Source of the DNA: a virus
Lineage: Duplodnaviria; Heunggongvirae; Uroviricota; Caudoviricetes
Strand: one strand, 5' to 3'
Virus record (IMG/VR): IMGVR_UViG_2534682338_000010
Coordinates: 1 to 33,953 of that record
DNA: 33,953 nt
The stretch's first letter is position 1. The number at the start of each line of letters is the position of its first letter. Position numbers and translations under genes: made by a program. Positions 6,378 through 28,048 of this stretch are shown here, piece by piece. The notes below the pieces were generated by a model. The model was not told the origin of the DNA. It worked only from the letters and a program-made list of their open reading frames with translations, and did not search any database.

Positions 6378-6396
6378 ATATTCACCCCTTTTATTA

Positions 6397-6675: not shown

Positions 6676-6720
6676 TACGCCCCCGATATTTTTATATAGT
6701 TTAATGGCAAAATTATTTAG

Positions 6721-6762: not shown

Positions 6763-6780
6763 TATTATTAAAATTAAATT

Positions 6781-10976: not shown

Positions 10977-11022
10977 GTTGAATACCTCCATGCTGTTATT
11001 TACTAGGCTTAGGGAGAAGGGA

Positions 11023-11676
11023 TTATTTCTTCGATGAATGCCACTTGCTTTCGCTATTCCACTTCCCGGCACGGGAGAAGAATAGATCGTTCTCGTTTCC
11101 AACATAGGAACGGTGGATACCATCGGAGGCATGACTACGAGCGTTTTTATCTAGAACTTCCCAGATACTATTAAGCTGAAATTCTGATTCGTTTTTACAC
11201 TCATCATCTTCATGTTCGATGTTAATCCCGATGGAATCGACTACCCCACGGAAAACAGGGTAAGTGGTTTCAACTTTGCCCGTGTTGGGGTTAAGGAAAA
11301 CCATCTCGATTTTCACATCAGATTTATCGAATTGCTTGTTTCGAATCAGGGTAATGTATTCTTCGCGAACGTTAGAAACAGTTACGTTGATCCCGTTGTT
11401 GTTGATCTCCTTCTCTTCGGTATTCGATGAGATTTGAAGAAAATCACCCGTTGCGAGATACGTAAATCCGTTATAGTCCAAATCGAAATACCCATCTGTA
11501 AGCCGTAGAACGTCCCCTGACGCTGTTATCACTTCGATAATGTGAAACATCGATCCAGTGGAAAAAAGCTGCGGTAGCGTCAATCTAGACACGTTCTGAC
11601 CTGTCTGGTCGTTGTAGACCTCGATGAAGTCCAGATTAGTGCATAGTTTGCTGAATGATTCCTGAATAGTTGCCAT
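11023..11676 (-). CDS. minor tail protein (lambda L-position)
   Basis: ATG overlaps the upstream stop (TAATG coupling) and is preceded by GGAGA; about 217 aa. Confidence 0.5.
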   Translation of the reverse strand: MATIQESFSKLCTNLDFIEVYNDQTGQNVSRLTLPQLFSTGSMFHIIEVITASGDVLRLTDGYFDLDYNGFTYLATGDFLQISSNTEEKEINNNGINVTVSNVREEYITLIRNKQFDKSDVKIEMVFLNPNTGKVETTYPVFRGVVDSIGINIEHEDDECKNESEFQLNSIWEVLDKNARSHASDGIHRSYVGNENDLFFSRAGKWNSESKWHSSKK

Positions 11677-12236
11677 TATACATTCTCCACTAATTCGAAT
11701 TTCATCTTGCCAATCTGGGCGATCTTCCAATCGATATTTTCAGTTTTGAGAACAAATTCACCTTCTACGTTTTGATACTTGATCACCTCACCCGCCAGGA
11801 CGTTTTGACGCAAGTTAGGGAAGAGTTTCATTTCACCACCTGATTTCACGTCTTCGGTGATCGTGTAGATTTTCTTGTGGTTCTCAAACTGGATGATAGT
11901 TCCCGCTTTCAGTGTTCCGGTGAAGTTGGAGATTCTCACCTTACGCCCACCGCGAGCAGTACCAGCAGCAGCCGTTACCATCTGGCGTACATCACCTGTA
12001 TATTTTGAAAAGTAAGACAGTGGCACATTGAAAGGACGACCAAAAAGGTGACGTGCTACAAATTCTTTTACTTCGTTAATATCCTGAGCCATGAAATTCG
12101 CGGTAAATTCTGCTTCGTAAAAATGGATGCCAGTAAAGCGACGCTGGAACTTACCGGAGATAGATTGCGCCTTGAAGAAAGGTTGTTTTGATTTAAGAGT
12201 AAAATCTGTGATTTTAATATTCTTTGATTTGAACAT
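11676..12236 (-). CDS. distal tail protein / minor tail protein (lambda M-position)
   Basis: 186-aa ORF immediately downstream of the tape-measure gene. Confidence 0.5.
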   Translation of the reverse strand: MFKSKNIKITDFTLKSKQPFFKAQSISGKFQRRFTGIHFYEAEFTANFMAQDINEVKEFVARHLFGRPFNVPLSYFSKYTGDVRQMVTAAAGTARGGRKVRISNFTGTLKAGTIIQFENHKKIYTITEDVKSGGEMKLFPNLRQNVLAGEVIKYQNVEGEFVLKTENIDWKIAQIGKMKFELVENV

Positions 12237-12241
12237 AGAAA

Positions 12242-12281
12242 AGCCCCCATAGTTTTATGATTATTTATGACTATGGGGGCT
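12242..12281 (-). terminator. intrinsic terminator / RBS-sequestering hairpin between tape-measure and distal tail genes
   Basis: minus-strand RNA GCCCCCAUAG-18-nt loop-CUAUGGGGGC followed by UUUUCU and then the AUG of the next gene. Confidence 0.55.
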
Positions 12282-12286
12282 TTTAA

Positions 12287-14716
12287 TTACATCTTACGGC
12301 GCTGTGCGTCTTCTACCGCCTGAGCAACTAACTTAGCGTGACGTTTGATGGCGTCCATGACCATCTTGTCTGAGCTATTAACGTTGCCGTTAATGTTCAA
12401 AGGTGCGTTAACTTCAATCGGTTGAGAGTTGCCACCGCCTGATTTTTGAGCAGCAAGGAAGTCTTTCAAATCGCCGTTAGTACGCTGATCAACTACTCGT
12501 TCACCCTTATCAAGCAACCATGTACCCTCACGAGGGATGTTATCAATACCATCGTGAGCCATACCGCTAACGTTAGTAGACTTGATGTTTGCGATGTTCC
12601 CCATGTTCTGAGAAACAGCCAATGCAGCAGCAGCGATTTTTTGACCTGTGGTTACGTTGGTCGGATCGTTCCATGCATCGGTAGCAGCCGTCCACATGTT
12701 CACCGTCGCTTGTCCAATGGAGAATGCTTTATGAGCAGTGAAAGCCATCTGCATAGCTTTAGTGTTTTCCTGCCCGAAGAGAGTCATTGCAGCAGCAAAA
12801 CCGCCGTACATATCATCGGCTATTGACTGACGAGCATCAGCATATTTCTTCTCAATTGCAGCCATTCGTTTTTGATGGTTTTCATTGAGTTTTTCTAATG
12901 CTTCCATCCGTTTAGCCGGATCGGTGATCCCATCAATCTTGAGTTTATCGGTTTTATAATCTTGTTCCGCTTCCGATTTCTCTTTATCGATTGCATTAAA
13001 TTTAGCAAACGGGTTATTTGAGTCTTGATAGTCTAAGCTATTGGTCAACTGATTGGTTTTAAAACCATCCATTCCATGCAAAGAATCTTCAATCTGTGAA
13101 TAACTTTGTTCGGTATCATTCACACGACGCATATATTCTTCGTAGGAGATAGCCTTGCCATCAAGTAACCGTTTATGGCTTTCTAACTCGTTGTCCCTGA
13201 TTTGTTGCAATTGTGTTAAGGCATTCAAAGCATCAACCGGATCAGCACCTAAAATCATCTTGTATACGTTTTCAGTATTCTGATCGATTAAGGATTGGCG
13301 TTTCGCGGCTGCGTCTTGCTGAGAGATTAAGCCCAGATCTAAAGCAGTGTCCAAATCTTTCAAGCTGGCTTCTAACTGCTTGTTCTGAGAAGCAATAGAC
13401 GCGGCGACCTGCCCTTGCAATTTAACATCAAGTGCATTCAGACGCTTGATTGCATCCTCACGTTCTTTCTGTGCTTTTTCTGCGGCTTCCTTAGCCTTTT
13501 TAGCTTTCTCTTCCGCTTTCTTCTTGGCTTTTTCCTCTTCTTTCTTTTCTTTACCAGACTTACCCAATGAAGCTGGTCGAGTTGGTGTAGTCGGGATAGT
13601 CAAATCACGGTTAGGATCTGCCTTGCGGGTTAGATGTTCCCCGTTATCGACAACAATCAGAGAGCCATTTTTCTTATAAGAATCACCAAAACGTTTCTTA
13701 AATCCTTCAACATCAAAGCCAGCAGTACGAGGATCAACACCAGCACCACGGATCGCGGCCTTTTCCCAATCTGCCAGATTATTCCAACGCTTTTCTTTAT
13801 TGTACTTGTCAATAATCTTTTGAGCGTCTTTATGGTTGGCGTTAAGAATACCACCAGTTGCGGTCTTGCCTTCTTTATTCAGTCGATCTAATGCCCTGAA
13901 TAGAGAACTCTTTTCCCAATCAATATTAAACCAGTCAAATAACCAGTTTAAGCTATCAACAAGCGGACCAGTAATGGTCATGCCGACACCTTTCAGGTTA
14001 TTTTCCAGCTTATTAATATTCTGAGAGAATTTATCATATTTTTTAGCGTTTTCTTCGGTGACGTTAACAGATTGATTCTGAATAGCGATCATCGCCTCTT
14101 GAGCACTATTATATTTCTCAAGCTGGCTGGTCATATGGCTTGAATCACTGGCTAAAGATTCCATCATGAACTTGATTTCAGCCATTGATTTTCCGGCTTT
14201 CTTCATGTCATAGAACACTTGGATCGCCGCTTTCATACCACCTTGCGGATCTGTCATGAAGTGAGCATAGTTTTCTAACTTAAGGCCAACCGATTCTAAA
14301 TCATCGGCAATACCACCACCGTTAGCCCACGCATCACCCATCTTATCTAAGGTGTCTTTGTTGATATCACCAAATTTTTCAACTGTTAGGCCAGTACCAG
14401 AAAATTCCTTTTCCAGTCTTTGAAGGGATTCAATCGAGAGTCCGGTCGCCTTAGATACTTCTGAATATTGTTTAACGTATTCCGCGCCAGCTTTAGCGGC
14501 TGCAACCACTGCGGTCGCAACTAAGCCGATACCACCAGCAGCCAAACCAGCAGAGCCAGCGATCCCACGAAGAGATCCAGTCAGACCAGATAAGCCACCA
14601 CCAAAATCAATATTACTTGCCTTTTCAGACAAACTATCGAGAAGGTCGGCGGCTTCATTGGTACTTCTCCTTAGACCTTTATTATCCCCTTCTATTGTTA
14701 CTATATGTTTTGTCAT
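12287..14716 (-). CDS. tail tape-measure protein
   Basis: 809 aa, long coiled-coil/Ala-Lys-Glu-rich central region (KKEEEKAKKKAEEKAKKAKEAAEKAQKERE), preceded by two small chaperone-like ORFs. Confidence 0.8.
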   Translation of the reverse strand: MTKHIVTIEGDNKGLRRSTNEAADLLDSLSEKASNIDFGGGLSGLTGSLRGIAGSAGLAAGGIGLVATAVVAAAKAGAEYVKQYSEVSKATGLSIESLQRLEKEFSGTGLTVEKFGDINKDTLDKMGDAWANGGGIADDLESVGLKLENYAHFMTDPQGGMKAAIQVFYDMKKAGKSMAEIKFMMESLASDSSHMTSQLEKYNSAQEAMIAIQNQSVNVTEENAKKYDKFSQNINKLENNLKGVGMTITGPLVDSLNWLFDWFNIDWEKSSLFRALDRLNKEGKTATGGILNANHKDAQKIIDKYNKEKRWNNLADWEKAAIRGAGVDPRTAGFDVEGFKKRFGDSYKKNGSLIVVDNGEHLTRKADPNRDLTIPTTPTRPASLGKSGKEKKEEEKAKKKAEEKAKKAKEAAEKAQKEREDAIKRLNALDVKLQGQVAASIASQNKQLEASLKDLDTALDLGLISQQDAAAKRQSLIDQNTENVYKMILGADPVDALNALTQLQQIRDNELESHKRLLDGKAISYEEYMRRVNDTEQSYSQIEDSLHGMDGFKTNQLTNSLDYQDSNNPFAKFNAIDKEKSEAEQDYKTDKLKIDGITDPAKRMEALEKLNENHQKRMAAIEKKYADARQSIADDMYGGFAAAMTLFGQENTKAMQMAFTAHKAFSIGQATVNMWTAATDAWNDPTNVTTGQKIAAAALAVSQNMGNIANIKSTNVSGMAHDGIDNIPREGTWLLDKGERVVDQRTNGDLKDFLAAQKSGGGNSQPIEVNAPLNINGNVNSSDKMVMDAIKRHAKLVAQAVEDAQRRKM

Positions 14717-14727
14717 AAATTACCCCT

Positions 14728-15069
14728 TTAACCGCTTCTGAGTTTCTCAAGCAAAGATGGATCAAACATGTTCAGCATTGCCGCTTTACGTTCTTCTTCT
14801 TTCTTGCGTGCAAGTTCTTCCAGTTCTTCTTTAGTTTTAAAGAGTTTTTCTTCTCTAATTAATTGGAATTGGCTAGGCTTGAGTTTCTTTGCAGTTTCAC
14901 GAGTCATTCCTTGTGACGTCATATACATGGAATATTGCAACATCGCATTCTGCATATCATGAAACGCGGGGCTTTGTGGTTCTAAGTAGGTGTCGAAAAT
15001 GTATAATTTCCAAAACAGAGTGATTGGCATATTATCCATTTCATCTTTACTAAGCCCCGATCGCATCAT
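14728..15069 (-). CDS. tail assembly chaperone (T-like partner)
   Basis: 113-aa ORF directly upstream of the tape-measure gene; no good SD; -1 frame relative to the preceding chaperone ORF. Confidence 0.45.
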   Translation of the reverse strand: MMRSGLSKDEMDNMPITLFWKLYIFDTYLEPQSPAFHDMQNAMLQYSMYMTSQGMTRETAKKLKPSQFQLIREEKLFKTKEELEELARKKEEERKAAMLNMFDPSLLEKLRSG

Positions 15070-15098
15070 TTGCCGAAAATAGAAATTCAGAAGCGGGT

Positions 15099-15407
15099 TT
15101 ACTTTACCTCGTTTTCAATTACTGCCGGATCTTGCATCAATGATGCTTGAGCAACCAAACCGATTAATTCACTACGGACGTTAGTATACAGTGCCTTAAC
15201 TTGTTCCATAGATTCAAATACTGGTTTACCGTCTTCATCTTCAATACAACGAAGAATCGAACGTTCATCACGGTCTTCTTTATCAGTATTGAAAACATGT
15301 TCGTTAAATTCTTTTACCGACATAGGGCGAGCATAGAAAGTAAATCCACCGATGGTTAAAGATTCACGTTTCGGAGAAAGGGCTTTCAGCATTTCATTAA
15401 TATTCAT
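15099..15407 (-). CDS. tail assembly chaperone (G-like)
   Basis: 102-aa acidic ORF at the canonical position upstream of the tape-measure gene. Confidence 0.5.
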   Translation of the reverse strand: MNINEMLKALSPKRESLTIGGFTFYARPMSVKEFNEHVFNTDKEDRDERSILRCIEDEDGKPVFESMEQVKALYTNVRSELIGLVAQASLMQDPAVIENEVK

Positions 15408-15449
15408 TCTTGTTTCCTCTTAAGTTAATTCGATATGTTTATTTAGAAT

Positions 15450-15956
15450 TTAAGAGATTTTCAAAGTCTGCTTAGTGCCAGTCTTCTTAATGTTGGTAAG
15501 GAAAGCAGCCGGAGGATTGCTTAACCAGTAGTAATGAAAACCACTTTGCATACTGTTATAAGGAACAGTGACAGCAGCACCACCCAAATTAACGGTTATA
15601 TTCCCCGCTCTACCATTCTGGAGATATACAGCCATAGTAGGAGTACCACCATTGAATTGACCAACGATAACGCCAATCAGACGCCCTACGCCCACGTTTT
15701 CGGGGTTCTCCATAGATCCTTTACCGCGCATGTCAGTTACTGGATAGTTTGAAGCAGTTACACCCCAGTTATTACCCAATGAAGTAGACCACGCAGCAGT
15801 AGCTACAACCGTATCCATACCACGACCACACATCGCACTCATGTTAGCTGGGCGACTAACCTTTAATGCGTTCATTGCTGCGCTCATCCATCGTTGACCA
15901 GTTACAGAAACAGCAGATGACCCGACCCAGCCAGGCTTATTAACGACATTCGCCAT
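15450..15956 (-). CDS. tail-associated structural protein (Gly/Asn-rich)
   Basis: 168-aa ORF; GGAG SD 8 nt upstream; follows the terminator after the putative tube gene. Confidence 0.5.
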   Translation of the reverse strand: MANVVNKPGWVGSSAVSVTGQRWMSAAMNALKVSRPANMSAMCGRGMDTVVATAAWSTSLGNNWGVTASNYPVTDMRGKGSMENPENVGVGRLIGVIVGQFNGGTPTMAVYLQNGRAGNITVNLGGAAVTVPYNSMQSGFHYYWLSNPPAAFLTNIKKTGTKQTLKIS

Positions 15957-15971
15957 TTTGATTACTCCAAT

Positions 15972-15999
15972 AAAAAAGCCCCACCATTAAGGCAGGGCT
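15972..15999 (-). terminator. intrinsic terminator (homologous to the one after the capsid gene)
   Basis: minus-strand hairpin GCCCUGCC-UUAA-GGUGGGGC with a G-U pair, followed by UUUUUU. Confidence 0.65.
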
Positions 16000-16004
16000 T
16001 ATAA

Positions 16005-16124
16005 TTAATCTTTAGCCTTGCGGCTTCGTTTAGCTGTGGCTTTCGCCGTAACTTCTTCTACTTCTGGAATCACCACCGCTTCATGTTCCGGCTGTGGTTC
16101 CGGTTCGGGAAGTTCTTCGAAAGT
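16005..16124 (-). other. in-frame post-TGA extension of the putative tail-tube gene (39 codons then TAA)
   Basis: frame 0 after TGA (16125-16127) is open: TFEELPEPEPQPEHEAVVIPEVEEVTAKATAKRSRKAKD; homologous to the capsid extension. Confidence 0.45.
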
Positions 16125-16601
16125 TCAAGCGGCAGTATTGAAGATTTGCTGTTTCAGCGGAGCACCATCAACGGCAAAGGTAAACTCTTTAGTTACCACT
16201 TCTTCATCGCCACCGTTCATAGCAACTTTAGAAATGAAGCCGTTGTACGCAATGCGAATACCAGTCTGTTTTCCGGCGTCAACATAATACTCTACTTTGA
16301 TCTGGCAGCGAGTGCCGTCTTCGGCAGCTTTTGCGAGCTTCTCGTGTACCGCATCACCTGGGATGTAGTTAACGGTCAGAGTCAGATCTTCAACGTTCAG
16401 TTTACCAACCAGCTTACGGTTATACTGAGAAGAATACGATTTGACTTCTACCGTCCCGCGAGACAGTGAATATTCAGGAAAACCAGCACACTCTTTAATT
16501 TCTTCGTATGCTTCATCAGCAAGATCGGTGTTAGTGGTATCAGCGTGATAGAACAGACTTACCAGACCACCAGTAAAAATATCTTTAAATTGTTGAGACA
16601 T
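16125..16601 (-). CDS. putative major tail tube protein
   Basis: 158 aa; size typical of siphovirus tube proteins; followed by a strong terminator; ends with TGA. Confidence 0.5.
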   Translation of the reverse strand: MSQQFKDIFTGGLVSLFYHADTTNTDLADEAYEEIKECAGFPEYSLSRGTVEVKSYSSQYNRKLVGKLNVEDLTLTVNYIPGDAVHEKLAKAAEDGTRCQIKVEYYVDAGKQTGIRIAYNGFISKVAMNGGDEEVVTKEFTFAVDGAPLKQQIFNTAA

Positions 16602-16657
16602 AGAATTACCCCTTAATTAAATTTGTTATAACGGGGGAACTAGTCCCCCGACTTTTA

Positions 16658-19600
16658 TTATTTAGTTGCTTTCAGTTCGGCTAATTCAGCTTTAGTTTCG
16701 GCAAGTTCTTTAGCCATAGCATCAAACTTAGCGGTCATTTCCTGCATTGCTTTGATGATTAAAGCATTGACAGCAGAGTTAGAAATAGTCTTGATTGCTT
16801 CTGGATGTTCTGGATCTTCGGTGGATTGAATACCTACTGCTTCCGGCAATACTTTTTCCAGATCCTGAGCAATAATACCTACTTCGCGTTTAATCACCGT
16901 GTCATCGGAAAGAGATTTAACTTTATCGTAGGTGTAGACTTTCAGTGAGTTTACTTTCTCTAATGCGCCGTCCTGTAATTCTTCCTTGTTAATTTTCAAA
17001 CGGGAGTCGGAGCGAATGTAAACATCGTTAAACGAACCGTTACGACCTGCGGTAAAGTCACCAGCAGCGTTAAAGTCAAAAGTTGCATCGTGTACGTGCA
17101 TACGCACCATAGCATTTCCGATAGTACCGCTAGGAACATGTACACCCATTGCTGCGATATGATATTTACCTTGATGGGTTGCTTTCCATACGTTATGAGC
17201 GGAATCGGTTGATTGTTGACAGTCGACCTGAATACCAGAAGCACGATCACGCCAGCTAGTCCAACTACCGCCAGCAACAGAACCACGAATCAGACCATTA
17301 CCGCCACCGGAAACAGTACCCGTTTCAAGTTGAATCATCTTACCGCCGAATTTCCAGACTTCGGTTTGTTTCTCACCGCGCATACGCATAACGCCAGCAT
17401 CATCGCAGTACAACAGACCCAATTCTAAGCCATTTGGATCTCTAAACCACAAATGCTTATTGCCACTGCGACGAAACTCAATATCAGCACCGTTAAGCGT
17501 GATATTACCGCCAGTGTGAATTGCTTTAGGTTTAACAGTACCGTTGATGGCAAACTCGATTAATTCAGTACCCGGACCGCCCGGTCGTTGTGTGTACCAG
17601 TGCCAACCGCTTTCGTCCGCACATTCGAATACTTGTTTACGAGCATCAGCACCCCACGCACGGATATTAAAGCTAGAAGTAGCTGTATTTTTGCCCCACG
17701 TTAATTTTCCTTCGGTAGTTAAATCCCCTCGGAAATGAGCAAGTAAGCCACCAGTACCGTTACGTTCTGTAGTAAAGTGAGTTCCGCTAGTGTCCTGGAA
17801 TTGCAAAACGTTATATCGATTGGCATTACTATTCCCCCAATGGTTAATCGTAAAAGAATCCATCGACTGATTTCCACCAGCAGAGAAAGTAAGCAGTCCT
17901 TTTTCTAAGAATACATTGTTGCTAAAACGGGCAGCACGGCTATCTCTTTCAAGAACTAATGCACCTTCGTTACCATCACCGCCTAAAGTAACTTTACCGT
18001 TAGTCAAATCGTAAATGAACGGTCTGTTTCCATTCCATCCGCCCAATTTATCATTTTCGGCAGTAGAAAGAAGATAAACTTTACCACCGTCATTACGCCA
18101 GAATGCACCATAATTACCGTAGATCATGCGGTAGGCGTCGCTATTCATTGAGATGAATTGAGCGTTAGTATAAACTCGTTTTGTGTTACCGGTTGCAAGT
18201 TCGATCTGTCCGTCGATGTGGTGACGAATAGAAGTACCACCTACATCACTATACCATTCAAAAACGTTAGTATCAGCATTACCATAACCGATCCACCCTT
18301 GACGGGTAATAGATCCAGTACGATTATCTTGAAACGCAATATGGTTGGATTGACCAGCAGGACGCCGCAAGGTAATAACATTACTACCTCCACCCAACAT
18401 CATTCGACCAGAAAGAATATTACCTTTATGAGTCCCAGCAATAGAGCTACTAGATTCAACGGATAGAATCTCCTGAGCATCTGTACTACCCGTGGCGAGT
18501 CGATAAGTAGAACCCTGAACCGTCTCATGCCAGATCATTTCGTTATAGTTGCTACGGAATTTACGAATATATTTTCGTCCAGTACCTCTATCATTGCTTA
18601 GATGAACAATGTCATAGCTGTTTTGTGTATTGTCGTCAAAACTCAACACACCACGTTTATTTTCTGTGTTAAAAAGAGTTACGTTGCGACCACCGATAAC
18701 ACCAACGGAAGGTTTAATTAACGTGGCTTCCGGCGTATCATAAACCGTCAAACTTACATAAACAGATTTCCCATATTCGACAATGACGTTATCGGTATAA
18801 CGCTGATATTTCACGTAGATATCATAGTTATCACCGGAAGTATTGACAGCAAATACCTCAAAATCTTTGTTTGTATTTCTACGGTATGCAATTACGTTAA
18901 GACCTTTAGGTCTATCGTTACCACTACGGAGAAGAATTTCTACTACATCAACTTGGTCATATGCCGTAACGTTGTAACCATTACCACCATGAATACGGAA
19001 AAACACACTACGCCCGTTTTGTGGAATTGTTGCGGTTGCCAATTTGAAATATGCAGATACGTTTTCGCTAGAATTGGGAACAGACATAACGACGTTTTTA
19101 ACAAACATCTTATCAACTTCGGCTTTGGTGTATGCACCAATCTCGCCAGGAGTCGGCTTATCACCTTCGTGATACATCTTATAGCTAAAGTTCTTCTGTC
19201 CTTCTCTATCAAAACCATAGGTTTCAACACGAGATCCACCAGACGCATAACGGAAAGTAAATCCGCGACCGTGCGCTTTACCGGCAGAGTGAGGAACGTT
19301 AAGAGTTAGATCCATGAGTCCATCTTGACCATTGGTACGGAAAGCACCAAAGTAGTTAAGATCTCTCGCTGTCTGGTCTTCCAAATAGTTAGCTGTTTTG
19401 GTTAACAGATAGCCGTGATGGTAAGTGTTGGTATTCTTCTTGATGTAAGCAGCATCGGCACTACCTTCAATAGAATCAATTCGCTGGTTAGCTGCGGCAA
19501 TTGCGGCATCAGTAGAAGATTTATTCTGGTCTACCTTGTTGTTAATTGCTGTATGGTTGCTATTAACTGTCCCCGTAAGATTGGTGATCTTCGTGTCGGC

Positions 19601-20194
19601 ATCTTTCTTATTATCCGCTACCGTCTTTTCTATTGCTGATTTATTTGCTTCGACAGTATTCGTTAAGTTGGTAACGTTGGTATTCGTCTGATCAACCCGC
19701 GCATTAATATCTGTCTTGTTCTTGTTAATTGTCGCGTTGATAGTATCGCGGGTTGAAGTAATAGTCTGATTCAGTTCAGTCTTAGCAGCCGCCAGAGCGT
19801 TAGCAGCTTCGGTTTTATTGTTACCTACTGTGGTAGTCAAAGCATCAATTCGTTTGTTGGCTGCGGTATCGCCAGCAGTGATTGAAGCATTGAGAGTATC
19901 ACGGGTAGAAGTGATAGTCTGATTCAGTTCAGCTTTAGCACTAGCCAGATTATTAGCGGCTTCTTGTTTGTTGGAAGCAATAACACGGTCAGTGCTAGTT
20001 TTGTTATTGTCTACTTTCGTATTCAGTTCAGCGTGTTTTTCTGGAGAAACACTAATTTGGACTACGTTATTATTTTTGTCTTTGGTGTAAATCACATGAT
20101 CCGCCAACTGTAAGGCGATTTCACCCTGTGATAATTGTTCCGGCGTTGGTTTTTTACCCGCCGTCTGTGTGCGTTTAAATTGGATCGACTGCAT
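16658..20194 (-). CDS. fibre protein with coiled-coil repeat shaft and C-terminal intramolecular chaperone (S74-like autoproteolytic) domain
   Basis: 1178 aa; N-terminal repeated NQTITSTRDT-type heptad units; C-terminal DSRLKINKEEL...VYTYDK...GIIAQDLEKVLPEAV typical of self-cleaving fibre chaperone domains. Confidence 0.75.
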   Translation of the reverse strand: MQSIQFKRTQTAGKKPTPEQLSQGEIALQLADHVIYTKDKNNNVVQISVSPEKHAELNTKVDNNKTSTDRVIASNKQEAANNLASAKAELNQTITSTRDTLNASITAGDTAANKRIDALTTTVGNNKTEAANALAAAKTELNQTITSTRDTINATINKNKTDINARVDQTNTNVTNLTNTVEANKSAIEKTVADNKKDADTKITNLTGTVNSNHTAINNKVDQNKSSTDAAIAAANQRIDSIEGSADAAYIKKNTNTYHHGYLLTKTANYLEDQTARDLNYFGAFRTNGQDGLMDLTLNVPHSAGKAHGRGFTFRYASGGSRVETYGFDREGQKNFSYKMYHEGDKPTPGEIGAYTKAEVDKMFVKNVVMSVPNSSENVSAYFKLATATIPQNGRSVFFRIHGGNGYNVTAYDQVDVVEILLRSGNDRPKGLNVIAYRRNTNKDFEVFAVNTSGDNYDIYVKYQRYTDNVIVEYGKSVYVSLTVYDTPEATLIKPSVGVIGGRNVTLFNTENKRGVLSFDDNTQNSYDIVHLSNDRGTGRKYIRKFRSNYNEMIWHETVQGSTYRLATGSTDAQEILSVESSSSIAGTHKGNILSGRMMLGGGSNVITLRRPAGQSNHIAFQDNRTGSITRQGWIGYGNADTNVFEWYSDVGGTSIRHHIDGQIELATGNTKRVYTNAQFISMNSDAYRMIYGNYGAFWRNDGGKVYLLSTAENDKLGGWNGNRPFIYDLTNGKVTLGGDGNEGALVLERDSRAARFSNNVFLEKGLLTFSAGGNQSMDSFTINHWGNSNANRYNVLQFQDTSGTHFTTERNGTGGLLAHFRGDLTTEGKLTWGKNTATSSFNIRAWGADARKQVFECADESGWHWYTQRPGGPGTELIEFAINGTVKPKAIHTGGNITLNGADIEFRRSGNKHLWFRDPNGLELGLLYCDDAGVMRMRGEKQTEVWKFGGKMIQLETGTVSGGGNGLIRGSVAGGSWTSWRDRASGIQVDCQQSTDSAHNVWKATHQGKYHIAAMGVHVPSGTIGNAMVRMHVHDATFDFNAAGDFTAGRNGSFNDVYIRSDSRLKINKEELQDGALEKVNSLKVYTYDKVKSLSDDTVIKREVGIIAQDLEKVLPEAVGIQSTEDPEHPEAIKTISNSAVNALIIKAMQEMTAKFDAMAKELAETKAELAELKATK

Positions 20195-20271
20195 CGAATC
20201 ACCTCACTATAAAACAGGAATAAGGGAGGCGTTAACCTCCCAACGTTCATGTTTTATTTAGGTAAGCAATC

Positions 20272-21105
20272 TTAATACTCACCGAAATCGATCCGGTCCG
20301 TCTTAGCCACTGCGCCAATTTCGCTAGGTGTCGGTTTCTCATTGGTGGAATATACCTTGATCCATTCAGAACGACCGTTTTCCTGAATATTTCGGACACG
20401 TAAACGCGGTGCGCCAGAAGTATTACAGGTTAATTGCCATGCGCCATGCTCATTAGCTTGAAGGTGAATTAACGATGTATCAGCACCATAAGGGTTAGTG
20501 CTAGCCGTTCCTTTGTAGGTTACGAAACGGTTTCCTGCTAATGCCTCGCTATCAATACCGCCCGTGAATGGATGTACACCTGCACCCAAACCAAAATCAC
20601 CCTGACGTAAGATCCGGCCTTCGGTAGCAATACCCCTTGCCAAAATCCCGCCATCTGGTTCAAGTTTAAATTCCAGTGTTACAGCTTTGTTATCACTACC
20701 ACGGGTTTTATGTGATGTGACGTAAGCATCGAATATACAAAAGTACCCTGTGTTAGCAGCACTATAGCCAGAGTTCACAACATAGAACATACGGAAGCGT
20801 AAAGGTGTTTTATCCTCTACCGCTTTCATCAACATTGCTTGATGTTCATCGTCAAGAACACGGTTTAACGTGAGTGTTGTCGGTTCCAGTCTACGATAAC
20901 CAGCAAGTTTCCCCGTAGCGTCCTGATCGTACTCTTCCAGAGTTTCAATCTCTGTGGATTCGGTTAGCGTAGGGAATGCTGCGATGTTCTCAATAGAACT
21001 AAAGCTAGGATCGAAAAAGTCGACCTGATTGTCTATCTGGTTAGAGATCGACACTTCAACATGCGACCCCGTGAAAATGTCTAAGTTATCTTGTGTAATA
21101 TTCAT
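20272..21105 (-). CDS. tail/neck structural protein (possible tube or fibre-anchoring protein)
   Basis: 277 aa; C-terminus shares the motif KPTPSEIGA with the 1178-aa fibre. Confidence 0.5.
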   Translation of the reverse strand: MNITQDNLDIFTGSHVEVSISNQIDNQVDFFDPSFSSIENIAAFPTLTESTEIETLEEYDQDATGKLAGYRRLEPTTLTLNRVLDDEHQAMLMKAVEDKTPLRFRMFYVVNSGYSAANTGYFCIFDAYVTSHKTRGSDNKAVTLEFKLEPDGGILARGIATEGRILRQGDFGLGAGVHPFTGGIDSEALAGNRFVTYKGTASTNPYGADTSLIHLQANEHGAWQLTCNTSGAPRLRVRNIQENGRSEWIKVYSTNEKPTPSEIGAVAKTDRIDFGEY

Positions 21106-21114: not shown

Positions 21115-21537
21115 TTAAAAACGCGCTAGATAAGAAAATTTAAGGCTAAGTGTCCCAACGATACCACCATCACTAGAATCATCGTCATAATCGGTATTAG
21201 AAGCTACTGGAGTGATATCTGAAATTGAGAAGCCCAAATCTTTAAAACGTGGGTTATCCGGCTGAATCTGGATTATCTGGCAAATACCCTCATGAATTTT
21301 CGTTTCATGAATCTGAGAATATAACTGCATTTCGATAACGCATTCAGCTTGCATTGCATTACCGCCACGGACCCTAGTGTAAGTCTCATTCATTCCGGTG
21401 ATCCAACAAACCACGTCATCACTAAAGCCTTGCTGAGTTTGTTCTACGTTTAAAGCCAGACCTAAATCTTGTTCGATAATATCCTGCAAGGCGCGTTTGA
21501 TTTTCAGTCTAGGCATATTATTAACGGTAGCGAGCAT
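21115..21537 (-). CDS. head-tail joining / tail completion protein
   Basis: ATG at 21537 preceded by AGGGGG with 6-nt spacing; overlaps the upstream gene end by 17 nt. Confidence 0.45.
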   Translation of the reverse strand: MLATVNNMPRLKIKRALQDIIEQDLGLALNVEQTQQGFSDDVVCWITGMNETYTRVRGGNAMQAECVIEMQLYSQIHETKIHEGICQIIQIQPDNPRFKDLGFSISDITPVASNTDYDDDSSDGGIVGTLSLKFSYLARF

Positions 21538-21811
21538 GTGTACCCCCTGCCAGAGTGATAAAGCAATCAGTTGTATTGTCACCATTGCGCTTAACGTATT
21601 GAACTTTGAAACGCTGATTTTCTACAGTGACAATATCACCCTGCTTTAAGTCTCCCTCACGACAGAATAGAAATTCTGTTTCTGTCATTACCCCTTGTTC
21701 GTCGGTAGTAGTAATTTCATGATAAGCACGAATTGATTTACCACCTTCCACCGAAAATACAGGAGCACTTCGGAACATTCTTGATAATTGTGATTCTGAT
21801 AATTTGAACAT
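21521..21811 (-). CDS. head completion / head-tail adaptor protein
   Basis: 96 aa; AAGGGGG SD 5 nt upstream of the ATG; first gene after the capsid terminator. Confidence 0.45.
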   Translation of the reverse strand: MFKLSESQLSRMFRSAPVFSVEGGKSIRAYHEITTTDEQGVMTETEFLFCREGDLKQGDIVTVENQRFKVQYVKRNGDNTTDCFITLAGGTHARYR

Positions 21812-21841: not shown

Positions 21842-21868
21842 AAAAAAGCCCCACCGTTAGGCAGGGCT
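21842..21868 (-). terminator. intrinsic terminator after the capsid gene
   Basis: minus-strand hairpin AGCCCUGCC-UAAC-GGUGGGGCU followed by UUUUUUG, starting 2 nt after the tandem stops. Confidence 0.65.
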
Positions 21869-22002: not shown

Positions 22003-24006
22003 TCATTCAGCGGAGATGTGAAGAACTTTCAGAGCTTCCGGCTGAACTACGGTGAAGTCCAGGTCTACCCAGATACGCGGAACGATAGCAGACTGTGCGC
22101 GGTAAGTGGTGTCGTCCATATCCAGTTCCAGACCACCCCATTCACCGATCATGATACCGGAGAAATCACCCAGAACGATGTGGTCTGCCGGAATAACGCC
22201 AGAAGTAACTACATCGTAACCAGCCAGTTTGCCGTTTTCGATGATATAACCGGAAACGCCGTTATCTTTCAGGGTAGATTCCAGTTCAGCAGCAGTTGCA
22301 CCGCTCATTGCAAACTTGATGGACTGTGCCGGAACGCCAGCGTCGGTCAGTGCTGCAATTTCTTTCAGGAAGTCTTTGTAGCTAAAAGCGGCTTTCTTAG
22401 TAACGCGACCACCGTCTACCAGTTGCTTAACCAGACCTTTCGGACCTCGAGTATTATCTTTGTCAGACAGAATCAGTTGTTCCAGTTTGATGCGAACAGC
22501 TTTGTTAATATGATCAGTGATCAGGGTAGCAATATTCGGAACAGTTTTCAGAGACTGACGGCTGATCGGGTTGCCACCAGCAAACGTCTTAGGAGCCATT
22601 TTCACGTTTGCAAATTCAGCTTTGCTTTCCGGTGCAGCACCGTTTTCATCAACGAAACCGAAAGCATCAACGCTGGAAGTAGTCATTTTCGGTACAGCAA
22701 TCGGAGCATTCAGACCAGACAGAACAGTCACACCCAGACGACCCAGAACAGACTGCGGAAGCAGCATTTCTACATAGGATTCGGTCAGCAGTTTTTCGTC
22801 GGTTACAGCAGTCAGAGTAGCTTTGGTGTTACCATCAGCAGCAGCACGCAGAGCAGCAGCCGGAACGAATACAGAGCCACCGCGAGCAGCACGACCACGC
22901 TGCATTGCAGCACCAGCAGCCATTGCAGAAAACTCGGCTTCGTTAGCACCCAGAGCTTCACCATCTACCAGGGAGCGAATTACGTTGTTCAGGTCAAAAG
23001 TTTTTTCCATTTTAGAGTCCTTAATTTGTTCGTTATTACGTTGAGCAGTAGCGATTTTATTTAGTGTCTTAGTGCGGAATGCTTCCGGCGTCATGTCTTT
23101 AATTGCTAATGCGCGTTTCAATTCTTCGTCATCAATATTTAGTTCGCGTGCAATTTCGCGAATTTCTAATTCATCTTCTTCGGAACGTTCAGCCACTTCC
23201 TCGGTTTTTTCTTCTTCATCCGGAGCGGCTTCACGTTCTTCTTTTACTTCTTCTGCTTCCCGAACAGTTGAACTATCATCATCAACACTTTCAGGATGTT
23301 CAGCGTCTTTTCCGTCTTCGAGATTTTCATCTTCTTTATTCTCTTCAACTTGGCGCTCTTGAGTTTCTTCAACTTCCGGTTCTTTATTTTCTTCTACCGG
23401 AGTTTCTTCAACCTGAGCGGATTCTTGTTCTTCTTTGATTTCTTCGATTTGTTCTTTAGTCATATCGCGTTTAGCCTCCAAATTAACTGTGATAGTATTT
23501 AGAGAGCGATTTAAACCGACAGAATCATCGGCAGGGACCGTCACAAATGAAATTTCAAAAGGCGCCCACTTAGTAACAATCAATTGCCCTTTGGTGTAGT
23601 CGATGTGATATTCTTTAATGTCATAACCGACAGAAATTTTTTCCATCGTACCTTCAATGACTTTATTGCGAATATCATTAGCCAAAGTGCCATGCTTAGA
23701 GAATTTAACCAGAGCACGACCTACGTTATCCGCATCGATTCGAGCGTTACAAACGACACCAATATGATTATCGAAATTATGATTGAACAGCAACGGAGCG
23801 TTATTATTCAGACGGGACAGATCAACCGCTTCCGGTGTATGTACCAGAATTTCATCTAATACCACCATTTCTTGATTTTGCTCATCCCAGAATTGGCGCT
23901 GATAAGGCTGTTCACTGGAGAAAGCAATTTCAAATTCGTATTGATCGTTATGCCCTTCGTTAATAACTCCACCGTAACCGTTAAGATCGCGGCGAAATTT
24001 AAGCAT
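22003..24006 (-). CDS. prohead protease / acidic scaffold (delta-like) / HK97-fold major capsid protein fusion
   Basis: 667 aa: N-terminal about 170 aa protease-like (ends EISFVTVPAD), about 150 aa extremely Glu-rich linker, C-terminal about 330 aa capsid-like. Confidence 0.75.
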   Translation of the reverse strand: MLKFRRDLNGYGGVINEGHNDQYEFEIAFSSEQPYQRQFWDEQNQEMVVLDEILVHTPEAVDLSRLNNNAPLLFNHNFDNHIGVVCNARIDADNVGRALVKFSKHGTLANDIRNKVIEGTMEKISVGYDIKEYHIDYTKGQLIVTKWAPFEISFVTVPADDSVGLNRSLNTITVNLEAKRDMTKEQIEEIKEEQESAQVEETPVEENKEPEVEETQERQVEENKEDENLEDGKDAEHPESVDDDSSTVREAEEVKEEREAAPDEEEKTEEVAERSEEDELEIREIARELNIDDEELKRALAIKDMTPEAFRTKTLNKIATAQRNNEQIKDSKMEKTFDLNNVIRSLVDGEALGANEAEFSAMAAGAAMQRGRAARGGSVFVPAAALRAAADGNTKATLTAVTDEKLLTESYVEMLLPQSVLGRLGVTVLSGLNAPIAVPKMTTSSVDAFGFVDENGAAPESKAEFANVKMAPKTFAGGNPISRQSLKTVPNIATLITDHINKAVRIKLEQLILSDKDNTRGPKGLVKQLVDGGRVTKKAAFSYKDFLKEIAALTDAGVPAQSIKFAMSGATAAELESTLKDNGVSGYIIENGKLAGYDVVTSGVIPADHIVLGDFSGIMIGEWGGLELDMDDTTYRAQSAIVPRIWVDLDFTVVQPEALKVLHISAE

Positions 24007-24051: not shown

Positions 24052-25563
24052 TTAGGGATCGGCTGGGGAATTTTTTTCTTCACCCTCGCCATCAACGATA
24101 ATATTTAGTGCGCTCTTTTCGGCTTGAATCTCTGAGAATACTTTTTCAGGATCATCACCACGTTCAAGAATAACGGCAGTACGTGATTTAAGTCCTTTAT
24201 CAATTAAAGCAATATCAGCGTTTACGTCTTTAATAACATCGACAGACTCGAAACGCGGACGAATAATAGTTGTATTATCGATAATATGTGGAATTGCAGT
24301 AATACGAATCGGAACAATACCACGCGCGGAATAATGGCGTAGATATGCTTCAAAAATTGGCAATACCACTGTTTCAATTAATTTGTTTTGAAGTGCTTTA
24401 ACGCGGTTACGTTGAAGTAGTTCACCAAAACGTGCGGCTGAGTAGTTGATCTGTGAACAATCTCCCGTTAAGCCCTGTTTAAACACGCCTAAGCCCATTG
24501 ATACGCTAGTAAACATCGCATCATTGAAGCTGTTAAAGTCATCACCGCTTTGCGTCGCCTGGATGCTCTTGATCGTTGCCCCTTCCGGTAATTCCTGAAT
24601 AGTACCCGGTGCAAAATCCTGTACTACTTCCGGCGCTTGATATTGTTCATCCTCTTCACCAGTATCAAAATCGTCACCAGAATCTTTCGGACGTTCGATA
24701 AAGCCCATAGAGCTAGCTGCAATACGTTTCTGGACGATCGCAGTTTCGCGGAATGCGTCTTGATGTGCGATATCCTTAATCACTGGCAGGAAGTCAGTCA
24801 CACCACGCAGAGATTCAGCCGCAAGTGGTTGATAATAATGACATACTTGCGAAGCATCTACGCGATAGTTATCACCTGTGTAAGTCTGAGTCAGTAGGTT
24901 GATTTTACGAAACCAAAATGCAACAGGGCGCATTGTTTCTACGTCATACTCGATCCCCTGATAGATAGCGCGTTCTTTGCTTACTTCACGGTTTAGCGAC
25001 CAGTCGCACTTATCAGCAGACAGGATAGAAACATTTAACTCATTGTTTTCTTTGGTTAAAACGATGAAGCACTCACCACCCATAACGCGCTCACGTTCAG
25101 CCATTACCAGCAGTTCACGGAAGTTAAAGCGACCGTTACGAGAGAAGCGTTTAGCGTTCTGCGCCCACTTCCAGAAAGCATTCTCGATCTGCTTATTCAG
25201 TGCGCTATCAAGTTTGCCATTTGATTTAACGATTGATGGCTTCGGATCTAGGCCAGTACCTACCACCATATCGGTGATGTATTGCGTGTATCGACTGCCT
25301 ACGGAAGTGTTTAAGGCCAGAGTACGACCCTGATCATAAAGGCGCTTACCGTTCGATTTGAGAGCCTTATTGAAGGTTCCTGTAATGGTGTCTTGTTGAA
25401 GTGATCCATCAATGCGATCACCCACCAGACCTAAACTACGAGTCGCCAAAGATCTCTGGTATTTTTCTATAGATTTGTCGATGAAAATTTTTGGTTGTTG
25501 CTGGCGGTGATTAGTTTTAACTGGAGTTTCTACCGCCTTTTTGCGTCGAAAAAGATTAAACAT
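24052..25563 (-). CDS. portal protein
   Basis: 503 aa; position between terminase and capsid; composition and length typical of lambda-type portals. Confidence 0.75.
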   Translation of the reverse strand: MFNLFRRKKAVETPVKTNHRQQQPKIFIDKSIEKYQRSLATRSLGLVGDRIDGSLQQDTITGTFNKALKSNGKRLYDQGRTLALNTSVGSRYTQYITDMVVGTGLDPKPSIVKSNGKLDSALNKQIENAFWKWAQNAKRFSRNGRFNFRELLVMAERERVMGGECFIVLTKENNELNVSILSADKCDWSLNREVSKERAIYQGIEYDVETMRPVAFWFRKINLLTQTYTGDNYRVDASQVCHYYQPLAAESLRGVTDFLPVIKDIAHQDAFRETAIVQKRIAASSMGFIERPKDSGDDFDTGEEDEQYQAPEVVQDFAPGTIQELPEGATIKSIQATQSGDDFNSFNDAMFTSVSMGLGVFKQGLTGDCSQINYSAARFGELLQRNRVKALQNKLIETVVLPIFEAYLRHYSARGIVPIRITAIPHIIDNTTIIRPRFESVDVIKDVNADIALIDKGLKSRTAVILERGDDPEKVFSEIQAEKSALNIIVDGEGEEKNSPADP

Positions 25564-25573: not shown

Positions 25574-26071
25574 TTATCGCGTAAGACGTAATTTGATATT
25601 TTTAATCGGGCTAATTCCCTGTTTACGTCGTTCGGCTTGAATTAATTTTGATAACTGACGTTCATAATCAGTCTTCAATTGCTGGAGAACACCCAATGAC
25701 TCGTACACAAATGTAGTATTTTTGATACTCATCTGAGACAAAGCCGCCTCGTCATTCGCTAATCGAGCAAATATAACCTGCTCAATTAAAGCAATGGTCT
25801 CTCTTAGGTATTCTTTTTTTGTTTGACGTTGAAAAATAGGTAAAACTGTCAGTTCCTGCATTGATACCAGTTCTTCATCAAGAGTAATAACAATGGTCAT
25901 CTTCCCTTCTGGAAAGTCTAACGTTTTAATCTCGTGATTAGCCGGAGTATCATCAACCTGATAAATGATACCTTTATTATTATTTCCTACCTGAATTGTT
26001 ACACCCTCTTCATTCGCCAGCGTGATTTTTTCGCCTTTACGAATTACTAAGGGAATTAGTTCTAAACTCAT
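25574..26071 (-). CDS. hypothetical head-morphogenesis protein (between terminase and portal)
   Basis: 165-aa ORF in the position occupied by W-like proteins in lambda-type head modules. Confidence 0.45.
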   Translation of the reverse strand: MSLELIPLVIRKGEKITLANEEGVTIQVGNNNKGIIYQVDDTPANHEIKTLDFPEGKMTIVITLDEELVSMQELTVLPIFQRQTKKEYLRETIALIEQVIFARLANDEAALSQMSIKNTTFVYESLGVLQQLKTDYERQLSKLIQAERRKQGISPIKNIKLRLTR

Positions 26072-26143: not shown

Positions 26144-28048
26144 TTAGAACGATGTTACCCAGCTACGGCCTCTATTTGGGCGTCTGGCGATGTTTTTACG
26201 TTGTGGTCGTGTGATTGGCTTATTTTCTTCGATTTGCTCGTCAGATTGCGATTTAGGAGCTTCTACGGGTTCTTCTGGTTCACGGTTCAAACTATCTTTG
26301 ATGGCTTCGAGTTTTTCCCATGACATTTTATTGAGTACATGGCGAGAAGCAGCATAGGAATAAGCCAGGCAGTCGAGAGCCTCGTTTCGTTGCTGACCAA
26401 CTTTTACCCAACGTGTGGTATTACCCTGCCGTTTCAACTGTTCAGAAAGCAATTGCTCGCAATAGTCATCAGGAACGTCACCAATCTGGAAGACAGTGTG
26501 AGGATCGCCATCTCTCAAGTTCCGGTTAATCATTTCACGGATCATCGTTTTAAGGTTGTTTACGCCCAGAATTTTAAGGGTAAAACCACCCGTTCTTGTG
26601 TCTTTTACCGGAAGGATTGGTGCATCAACATTGCTTGCGCCTTTAATGGCGGTTAGATTTTGCCACCGACTACAGAATCGGTAGATCACTTGCGTAGCTC
26701 GTCCGTTCGATGAGTCCACGAAAGCAGATAGCATCGGGATTCGTTCACCGGATCGGGTATAGAATTTCGCTTTCAGGAAGTTATAAAGCTGGTCATATGC
26801 TGGTGATTCGTGGCGTTCGCAGTTCACATCATAGAATGATCGGTGATCAACTACGCATAGACCTTTACGAGAAATACCCAGCAAGGTAGATTCCAGACGG
26901 TCTTTTTGCTGGTCAACTCCACCTACCAGAGCCAGTACATCATCAGGAATATTGTCTAGGCTAATATCAGTTTTCAGCGTTTCCAGTTCGTCGGCTGTGC
27001 GGTCTTCGTTAAGATCATCGAAGGTTTCACCGAGGACTGTATTGTAGAACGTTGCCAGGGACATATTCGCGTAGCTATCAGCAAAGTCCACCACACACGC
27101 ACGGATAGAACTAAACGGAGACATAAGGCGGTTAGCATGAAAACCGATTACTTCCGCATTTGGTTCGGTGGCGACCCATTCTCCCTTAGCAACAGCACGT
27201 AGGCGATCCCCTTCGGTCCAGTCGGTTTCACATTCAGGACAACGATAAACGGCTGTATCTGGGTTGGGTAATGATTTACCGTTAATCGTATGCCAATCGA
27301 AATGTACGTTACTCCATTCCATTACGTGCTTGTGTCCGCAATGCTGGCAAACGACATGATATTTTCTCTTATCCGAGAGTTCCCATTGTTGGTTAATCGC
27401 CCCATCACGAGCGGTTGGAGTGGAAGCAATTACGATCCTTGCATCTTCCCCGAAAGTGGTTGCGCGTTGTTCCGCTAGCTGGATCGGGTTCCCTTCGTCT
27501 GACTCATCAGCCGCATCAACTTCATCAAGAATAATCAAAGGGAGTGTTTTACCGCGAAGATGTGACGGACTATTCAACGACATGAAATACATAAACGATC
27601 CGTTACGAAGCTGAATAATCGATGAGTTGTTAACGGCATTGCGATCTGATTTGTCGGTGATCATCGCCTTTAATTCTGGCGTTGCCTCTAATACTGGCTT
27701 CACCTTACCAGCGATCCAAGAATTTAGTTCCCTAACGTTACTTTGCAACACCCCGATATTAGTAGGGTTACTCGCGATCCGATGGAAGATAATTCCGTTA
27801 AGAATCATGGTCTTACCCAACTGTGCCGAACATTTAAACACAATTTTTCTACGGTCTTCGGTGATCGCGTCCATCATTCCACGTTGGAAGGGATGCAATT
27901 TAATTAGAGATCCGGCTTTAACACCATCGGTAGCAACTACGTTAGCCTCTACCCACTCGCTAGGTTTCATTGCTTTAGGTGGGCGAATTGCAGCAGAGAT
28001 ATTTCTGAGAATCTTTTTTAATTTTGCCTTATTAGAAATCAGTTTCAT
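26144..28048 (-). CDS. terminase large subunit, lambda GpA-type
   Basis: 634 aa; Walker A KCSAQLGKT; acidic ILDEVDAADESDEG (Walker B-like); Cys/His cluster CQHCGHKH...CPECE as in GpA-family terminases. Confidence 0.85.
   Translation of the reverse strand: MKLISNKAKLKKILRNISAAIRPPKAMKPSEWVEANVVATDGVKAGSLIKLHPFQRGMMDAITEDRRKIVFKCSAQLGKTMILNGIIFHRIASNPTNIGVLQSNVRELNSWIAGKVKPVLEATPELKAMITDKSDRNAVNNSSIIQLRNGSFMYFMSLNSPSHLRGKTLPLIILDEVDAADESDEGNPIQLAEQRATTFGEDARIVIASTPTARDGAINQQWELSDKRKYHVVCQHCGHKHVMEWSNVHFDWHTINGKSLPNPDTAVYRCPECETDWTEGDRLRAVAKGEWVATEPNAEVIGFHANRLMSPFSSIRACVVDFADSYANMSLATFYNTVLGETFDDLNEDRTADELETLKTDISLDNIPDDVLALVGGVDQQKDRLESTLLGISRKGLCVVDHRSFYDVNCERHESPAYDQLYNFLKAKFYTRSGERIPMLSAFVDSSNGRATQVIYRFCSRWQNLTAIKGASNVDAPILPVKDTRTGGFTLKILGVNNLKTMIREMINRNLRDGDPHTVFQIGDVPDDYCEQLLSEQLKRQGNTTRWVKVGQQRNEALDCLAYSYAASRHVLNKMSWEKLEAIKDSLNREPEEPVEAPKSQSDEQIEENKPITRPQRKNIARRPNRGRSWVTSF

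Follow-up and report, generated by a model that had tools for sequence, protein, structure and literature searches.

The p140 protein of phage T5 is encoded by a duplicate of the tube gene. It forms a single ring directly above the distal tail protein and bears the p132 collar, which in turn holds the L-shaped fibres; the authors of that study state that p140 and p132 are restricted to T5-like phages (PMC10038345). In T4, gp36 binds with its C-terminal end to the N-terminal end of gp37 (review PMC9603124). A literature search for fibre anchors with a tube domain returned only T5 and lambda papers, and the lambda paper is silent on how Stf is attached. Here, a stretch of 33,953 nucleotides (nt) from a virus of the class Caudoviricetes (IMG/VR record IMGVR_UViG_2534682338_000010, positions 1 to 33,953; hereafter the window) was analysed around two adjacent genes, one for a protein of 277 amino acids (aa) and one for a tail fibre of 1178 aa. 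An earlier note, made from the sequence alone, had linked the two by a shared peptide, KPTP-x-EIGA, and had suggested a docking element or a trace of domain exchange. The present analysis finds it likely that the 277-aa protein is a fibre anchor derived from the tail-tube protein, joined to the fibre by a joint of the gp36/gp37 type, with KPTP-x-EIGA as a generic element of fibre proteins.

The features on which this reading rests are as follows.

20272..21105, minus strand: 277-aa putative fibre-anchor gene (tail-tube paralogue with gp36-like C-terminal connector), of a 78-cluster family in Enterobacterales prophages with conserved synteny
20626..21105, minus strand: N-terminal tail-tube-fold domain, anchor aa 1-160
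20341..20625, minus strand: C-terminal beta-rich domain, anchor aa 161-255, gp36-C-terminal-like
20275..20292, minus strand: C-terminal tail IDFGEY, proposed plug of the joint; D and G invariant and the aromatic end conserved in the family
16658..20194, minus strand: tail fibre gene, 1178 aa (gp37-type distal fibre with intramolecular chaperone; phrog_1699, Pfam)
20042..20194, minus strand: fibre N-terminal connector domain, aa 1-51, of gp37-N-terminal type, proposed socket; contains KKPTPEQLSQGEIAL
19412..20041, minus strand: helix-rich insertion of ~210 aa, aa 52-261, a gap in the alignment with Phi1 gp37
16661..19411, minus strand: gp37-like body of the fibre, aa 262-1178, also present in Krischvirus phages
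16835-17011, minus strand: S74 intramolecular chaperone, fibre aa 1062-1120 (Peptidase_S74)
16125..16601, minus strand: gene for the tail tube (major tail) protein proper, 158 aa, directly downstream of the fibre gene (phrog_158)

As in the T-even phages (T4 and Phi1/RB49), the fibre starts with a gp37 N-terminal domain of ~50 aa (IQFKR…GE(L/I)…TKD), and the two genes are adjacent and in the same order. Phi1 gp36 shares with the anchor the C-terminal domain and an ending of the form …KPTPx(D/E)(V/I)GAV…IDFG(T/E)(F/Y). In the T-even phages, however, gp36 hangs from gp35 and gp34 on a myovirus baseplate, whereas its counterpart here is a paralogue of the tail-tube protein and is encoded by a lambda-like siphovirus prophage, and Phi1 gp37 lacks the ~210-aa segment that follows the N-terminal domain in the present fibre.

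The nearest functional precedent for the anchor is T5 p140. In T5 a separate immunoglobulin-like (Ig-like) collar, p132, stands between the ring and the fibre pb1, and p140 has no extension, whereas here the tube paralogue itself bears the fibre connector or, in relatives, the whole fibre. T5 p140 is moreover a double-domain trimer, while the 277-aa protein has a single tube domain. General Pfam and PHROG matches of the scanned tail genes included no collar-like family, although no search was aimed at p132. The C-terminal region of T4 gp34 (5NXF, 5NXH, 4UXE) and its homologue 9F4A (…WMRVFTSATPPTAADIGA…) share the KPTP-x-EIGA motif with the anchor, but the similarity is weak (E = 0.088), and gp34 joins gp35 and is without the DFG-aromatic tail. 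The collar spike gp40 of Vibrio phage XM1 (7KJK) is likewise fixed to the tail axis through an anchoring domain at its N-terminus, behind which comes a coiled coil. Its match to the motif region (7kjk_A3) was weak and not significant (E = 0.42). The anchoring domain of gp40 is Ig-like and binds the outside of neck proteins (PMC10457771). It is not a tube-fold ring subunit, and gp40 was rejected as a homologue; the 839-aa match P0119 is a fusion tipped by T5 pb1 and not a gp40. The combination of a tube paralogue, a gp36-type connector and a Krischvirus gp37-like fibre in a temperate siphophage was not found described, and is a modestly novel variant.

Domains of the putative anchor and the fibre

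The N-terminal part of the 277-aa protein has the tail-tube fold and sequence kinship to tube proteins, and BLASTP aligned the 277-aa protein with the tube protein of the window itself (E = 2e-17); it is a paralogue of the phage's own tail-tube protein. The 158-aa gene has a far better phrog_158 score than the anchor (E = 1.7e-20 for the 158-aa protein) and sits at the tube position, with the chaperone and tape-measure genes downstream of it. For this reason the 277-aa protein is more likely to be a specialised ring than the subunit that polymerises into the tube. The matches of the 158-aa protein to the Pfam models of lambda-like tail tube proteins were below the cut-offs; in a near-identical prophage RefSeq names its gene 'phage tail tube protein'. 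The possibility that the 277-aa protein is the tail terminator, suggested by its place at the position of lambda gpU, was rejected, the terminator fold belonging to the upstream 141-aa open reading frame (ORF).

The C-terminal part of the anchor (aa 183-277) aligns terminus to terminus with Phi1 gp36 (378-496). A comparison of the anchor family profile with Phi1 gp36 in hhalign gave a probability of 88.6% and E = 2.6e-6, and BLASTP aligned anchor 207-277 with Phi1 gp36 426-496 at E = 2e-5. The aligned C-termini read …KVYSTNEKPTPSEIGAVAKTDRIDFGEY in the anchor and …QLYHEGNKPTPADVGAVPLNAVIDFGTF in Phi1 gp36, each up to the last residue, and the C-terminal domain with its tail (…KPTPSEIGAVAKTDRIDFGEY) is homologous to the gp36 C-terminus. 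Equivalents of the tail are IDFGTF in Phi1 gp36, QDFGYY in T4 gp36 (which ends …DSVQDFGYY) and MDFGTF in a 198-aa protein of a Proteus prophage, and others occur in the anchor relatives P0078 and P0080-P0095. The matches of the C-terminal domain to PHROG tail-fibre families were weak.

The fibre matched phrog_1699, long tail fibre distal subunit, at E = 2.6e-142, and the Pfam families Gp34_trimer and Peptidase_S74. Its first 51 residues are 39% identical to aa 4-54 of Phi1 gp37 (E = 4e-10), and they could also be aligned with the distal fibre T4 gp37 and six further ones; the pattern of such a domain is IQFKR…G.(K/R)P…GE(L/I)…(Y/F)TKD. The stretch G-(K/R)-(K/Q)-P-T is frequent but not universal in gp37-type N-terminal domains; G-(K/R)-K-P-T is present in 6/8, and the exceptions at this stretch are T4, with GTRPAA (RPAA for KPTP), and the phage record DCP80, with GYIPKA.

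The helix-rich insertion behind this domain (aa 52-261) is probably a coiled coil. It has a weak apolipoprotein-like match and contains a direct repeat of 93 nt (19728-19820 and 19881-19973) with 78% identity and a spacing of 153 nt. In a Proteus prophage, a segment related to the insertion forms a separate protein, the 198-aa protein mentioned above, with an N-terminal domain of its own and the DFGTF tail.

Residues 262-1175 share 78% aa identity with aa 71-978 of Phi1 gp37, and the fibre body has ~80% nt identity to the gp37 genes of the RB49/Phi1 group. The fibre body is a clear case of exchange between a lytic myophage group (the T4-like Krischvirus) and a prophage, and it documents that receptor-binding fibres pass between T4-like phages with a lytic cycle and temperate prophages of E. 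coli.

The proposed joint between anchor and fibre

Nine junctions in eight loci were compared: those of the window, the prophage of E. coli PSJ-22, a metagenomic relative, a Proteus prophage (with two junctions), DCP80, the locus L009, Phi1 and T4 gp36/gp37. In 9/9, a protein ending in xD(F/L/E)Gx(F/Y/E) was directly followed by a gene with a gp37-type N-domain at its start. The KPT motif preceded the tail in 7/9 junctions; T4 gp36 and the 198-aa protein of Proteus lack it. Since the joint is present there without the motif, the constant feature is the tail and not the motif.

The Proteus mirabilis contig (L005, 10001-13516) encodes a chain of a 275-aa anchor, the 198-aa coiled-coil protein and a 675-aa gp37-like fibre. 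The chain holds two successive joints of DFG tail and N-domain, and the joint would thus be used as a repeatable connector.

When 1.84 billion representative proteins were searched with a profile, 270 matched, of which the best 149 were retrieved for counts. The whole anchor architecture was found at the N-terminus of 104 of these, and 99 of the 104 were longer than 400 aa (median 916) and are one-piece fusions of anchor and fibre, with tips such as T5 pb1 or S74-chaperoned fibres. At one locus with such a fusion, no separate fibre gene followed. A gp36-type tail terminates most of the closest relatives (342-1209 aa). At the loci examined, a fibre gene with the gp37 N-domain came after the anchor gene in every case other than that of a fused fibre.

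Matches were found in 51 E. coli genomes. Many of them, about half of the 45 matches listed, cover only the anchor gene and the first 21-65 codons of the fibre gene, the fibre bodies beyond these codons having been replaced. One replacement (L012) is a pyocin-knob/S74 fibre without an internal KPT motif, and another is a gp37-like fibre followed by a T2-type receptor-recognising gp38. The pairing of the same anchor with the motif-free body in L012 means that the internal copy of the motif is dispensable for pairing. Anchor and fibre N-domain thus behave as one inherited attachment unit.

From the homologies, the tube-like fold, and the co-occurrence and co-inheritance of tail and N-domain, the following arrangement is probable. 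The tube paralogue would form a ring in the siphovirus tail, coaxial with the tube, and its gp36-like C-terminal domains would trimerise. Their DFG-aromatic tails (…DRIDFGEY) would then hold the gp37-type N-domain of the fibre by physical binding, as gp36 holds gp37 in the long tail fibres of T-even phages. The constant attachment unit would consist of the anchor and the first ~50-65 fibre residues, with the remaining fibre as an exchangeable receptor-binding cartridge. The T5 p140 precedent makes a tip-proximal ring somewhat more likely than the neck-proximal one which the gene order (terminator, anchor, fibre, tube) suggests.

Several points weigh against the arrangement proposed. The ring could be tip-proximal, like that of T5 p140, or head-proximal, as the gene order might suggest, and trimeric fibres are not readily matched to a hexameric tube ring. 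The AlphaFold2 model of the anchor C-domain (aa 163-277) has a pLDDT of 30-60, and the model is informative for the N-domain only. The likeness of the anchor to T4 gp36 itself is confined to the DFG-aromatic tail, and the 277-aa protein gave no match to Pfam Phage_T4_gp36 (PF03903) at E <= 0.1; the longer relative P0083 does carry this family (28.8 bits vs a cut-off of 26). Of gp36, the 277-aa protein therefore carries the C-terminal connector part only. Searches of PDB sequences with T4 gp36, Phi1 gp36 and a profile of the gp37-type N-domain returned only spurious designed beta-propellers, so that the joint is without a structural template. Finally, the KPT stretch is conserved in 6/8 of the N-domains and possibly contributes to the interface.

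Whether the window represents a large undescribed class of side-fibre anchors in siphophages, with a ring of a duplicated tube protein and a fibre either fused or held by a portable gp36-C/gp37-N joint shared with T-even myophages, is about evenly balanced. If such a class exists, whole receptor-binding fibres could move between lytic myophages and temperate siphophages. It would also bear on the anchoring of fibres in lambdoid-type siphophages that are not of the T5 group, a question to which a tube paralogue with a gp36-type connector would be a concrete answer. The border between the anchor with the first ~50-65 fibre residues and the exchangeable rest would form a natural cassette boundary, usable for the retargeting of host range.

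Origin and role of the KPTP-x-EIGA motif

Three copies of the motif were confirmed where the earlier note had placed them, all on the minus strand and in the two adjacent genes.

20111-20155, minus strand: N-terminal fibre copy, aa 14-28, KKPTPEQLSQGEIAL; KPTP at 20152-20141 (aa 15-18)
19133..19159, minus strand: internal fibre copy KPTPGEIGA, aa 346-354, within DKPTPGEIGAYTKAEVD (aa 345-361); KPTP at 19159-19148
20311..20337, minus strand: anchor copy KPTPSEIGA, aa 257-265 (module-end junction), within EKPTPSEIGAVAKTD (aa 256-270); KPTP at 20337-20326

No further KPTP tetrapeptide occurs in any of the six frames of the window (33,953 bp). BLASTP aligned anchor 230-270 with fibre 318-359 over 42 residues with 36% identity (E = 3e-4), and in a profile comparison of the anchor with the internal region of the fibre the support was limited to 22 columns around the motif (E = 3.7e-4, probability 36%). 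The N-terminal fibre copy has only KPTP in common with these two, with GEI following after a gap of 6 residues. It lies in a different, separately conserved domain, and so does not repeat the element in the way that the other two do.

In the 149 related proteins the strict pattern KP[TS]xx[DE][IVL][GNS]A was found 99 times, against 0 in shuffles. Up to 8 copies occurred per protein, with a spacing of ~100-120 residues, and the consensus W..W.(K/R)(V/I)Y(T/H)x(G)(N)KPT(A/P)(A)(D/E)(V/I)GA(L/V)P has an invariant Tyr at -5. Across the family of the 277-aa protein, with 78 clusters from E. coli, Shigella, Salmonella, Providencia, Edwardsiella and Proteus, the form VY(S/T)xxEKPTPxEIGAV is conserved, and longer homologues have several copies, often followed by G(D/E)TMTG. 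Phi1 gp36 has three copies of the motif, and Phi1 gp37 has one, where the position of the internal copy (aa 155) reads YKMYHEGDKPTPSELNVY. In T4 gp34 it is found at aa 1242 (…VQVFDGGNPPQPSDIGALP…). The crystal structure of gp34 shows the P5 beta-prism at aa 1146-1238, with a short beta-helical cap after it (PMC5537660). The motif is thus located just past P5, at the exit of a trimeric module.

KPTP-x-EIGA is, on these grounds, a generic junction motif of tail fibres which closes a beta-rich module of ~100 aa and connects it to the one that follows. Neither the motif-bearing segments nor the fibre N-terminus alone matched a family in Pfam scans, the repeated ~100-aa module has no Pfam model, and nothing was found in the literature on GNKPT in tail fibres. 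By itself the motif is ordinary; its use is in delimiting domains when fibres are annotated or engineered.

The three local copies have three different origins. The anchor copy (WIKVYSTNEKPTPSEIGAV) and the internal fibre copy (SYKMYHEGDKPTPGEIGAY) both fit the module-end consensus, with Tyr at -5 and (D/E)(V/I)GA; the former is the last module junction of the gp36-like C-terminal connector, and the latter arrived with the Krischvirus-type gp37 body. The N-terminal fibre copy (TAGKKPTPEQLSQGEI) fails the consensus, having neither Tyr at -5 nor (D/E)(V/I)GA, and is the partly conserved G-(K/R)-K-P-T stretch of the gp37-type N-terminal domain.

A functional link between anchor and fibre, in which the motif-bearing ends matter for attachment, had been drawn from the shared peptide. 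The link itself is upheld by the homology to the gp36 C-terminus and the gp37 N-terminus, whereas the peptide does not serve as its evidence. That the peptide itself is a specific docking element, with copies that recognise each other or a common partner, is very unlikely. Such a role would agree with the location of two copies at or near the ends predicted to meet (anchor aa 257-265, fibre aa 15-18), with the motif before the C-terminal tail in 7/9 proximal partners and with G-(K/R)-K-P-T in most gp37-type N-domains, but the repetition of the motif up to eightfold at regular module ends within single fibres is that of a generic element. T4 gp36 and the Proteus 198-aa protein form the same type of joint without it, T4 gp37 has RPAA instead of KPTP, the internal copy is gone when the anchor pairs with the pyocin-knob fibre, and the copy in T4 gp34 is an intramolecular domain exit. 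The three occurrences of KPTP as chance or low-complexity coincidence have a practically negligible probability. The N-terminal copy aligns over KPTP alone and needs the 6-residue gap, as a coincidence might, but three tetrapeptides were seen in the two proteins vs 0.0035 expected from composition (Poisson P ~7e-9). The two KPTPxEIGA copies agree at 8/9 positions, which was reached in 0/500 shuffles of both proteins (maximum 7), and the motif is conserved throughout the family; a chance origin of these two copies is refuted.

Conserved boxes have been invoked for the swapping of gp37 parts in T-even phages, and the motif might accordingly be a recombination scar or hotspot, a box for the swapping of fibre modules between the neighbouring genes or with other phages. 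The mosaic make-up of the fibre is evident, and the long anchor homologues P0078, DCP80 and P0083 have extra fibre modules exactly between the motif and the DFG tail. Against this, the motif cores agree at 22/27 nt without flanking identity, the two genes have no word of more than 11 nt in common, and that one lies elsewhere, and the profile similarity of anchor and internal fibre region ends after its 22 columns. The breakpoints are at fibre aa ~262 (vs Phi1 gp37) and ~21-65 (E. coli prophages), none of them at a motif copy. The explanation is an unlikely one, and the earlier proposal of a domain exchange between the two genes is disfavoured by the same lack of extended DNA identity and the same breakpoints. 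A reading of the 277-aa protein as a decorated major tail protein or second tube subunit, with its C-domain displayed on the tail surface like the Ig-like domains of lambda gpV and T5 pb6 and with no part in holding the fibre, is equally improbable. A separate and better-scoring tube gene is present, the 99 fused relatives extend the same N-terminal architecture to full fibres with receptor-binding tips and chaperones, the C-terminus matches gp36 to its very end, and a fibre gene with the gp37 N-domain always comes next unless it is fused. The tube-paralogue anchor with a gp36/gp37-type joint is the most probable reading.

The surrounding prophage module

The genes of the window make up the structural module of an E. 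coli prophage of lambda-like siphovirus type, and chromosomal matches to it with 79-95% nt identity were found in 58/5,426 complete E. coli genomes. The features outside the anchor, fibre and tube genes are listed below.

26144-28048, minus strand: large terminase
25574-26071, minus strand: head-tail joining protein
24052-25563, minus strand: portal
22003-24006, minus strand: protease-capsid fusion, 667-aa ORF
21521-21811, minus strand: FII-like protein, 96 aa
21115..21540, minus strand: tail terminator gene (141 aa), directly upstream of the anchor gene; 141/156-aa ORF 21115-21585
20224..20241, minus strand: terminator-like hairpin in the 77-nt spacer between anchor and fibre genes, from a consensus scan only and not above shuffle expectation for the region
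15450-15956, minus strand: gp38-like adhesin, 168 aa
Minus strand, after the gp38-like adhesin in gene order: two chaperone-like ORFs
12287-14716, minus strand: tape measure protein
Minus strand, after the tape measure gene in gene order: distal tail protein, then a 1258-aa tail tip protein

The 667-aa ORF (22003-24006, minus strand) joins a prohead protease (Peptidase_S78) and an HK97-type major capsid protein through an acidic, Glu-rich linker. The 168-aa ORF (15450-15956, minus strand) matched Pfam Gp38_N (E = 1.9e-15) and phrog_1121 'tail fiber adhesin' (E = 2e-33). It is separated from the gp37-like fibre gene by the tube gene, and the fibre also has its own S74 chaperone. The gp38-like gene was absent in the Proteus relative and in the relatives L003, L009 and L010. 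Plus-strand ORFs within the fibre gene (e.g. 18953-19309 and 19415-19639) are unsupported, being antisense to a strongly homologous gene.

In addition to the hairpin in the anchor-fibre spacer, terminator-like GC hairpins with T-runs were present at 21847-21868 (minus strand; capsid/connector genes) and at 15976-16000 (minus strand; tube/adhesin genes). The region contains 8 such hairpins, not clearly above the shuffle mean of 5.5 (sd 2.5). The intergenic hairpins could tune expression ratios.

A tblastn search of 50,697 phage records with the anchor and a distant fused relative matched only the record of Escherichia phage DCP80 (L001, GenBank PQ671644.1). It is classed as a 141-kb (kilobase) Straboviridae phage, and its positions 1-18560 contain a lambda-like terminase, portal, anchor-fibre pair (698 aa and 745 aa) and tape-measure module of prophage type, which suggests that the record is a chimeric assembly or a very unusual mosaic. 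In E. coli PSJ-22 (L002, 32993-34711), the near-identical prophage adjoins a truncated ycdX, ghrA and a tRNA-Ser gene, and this neighbourhood suggests the site of integration.

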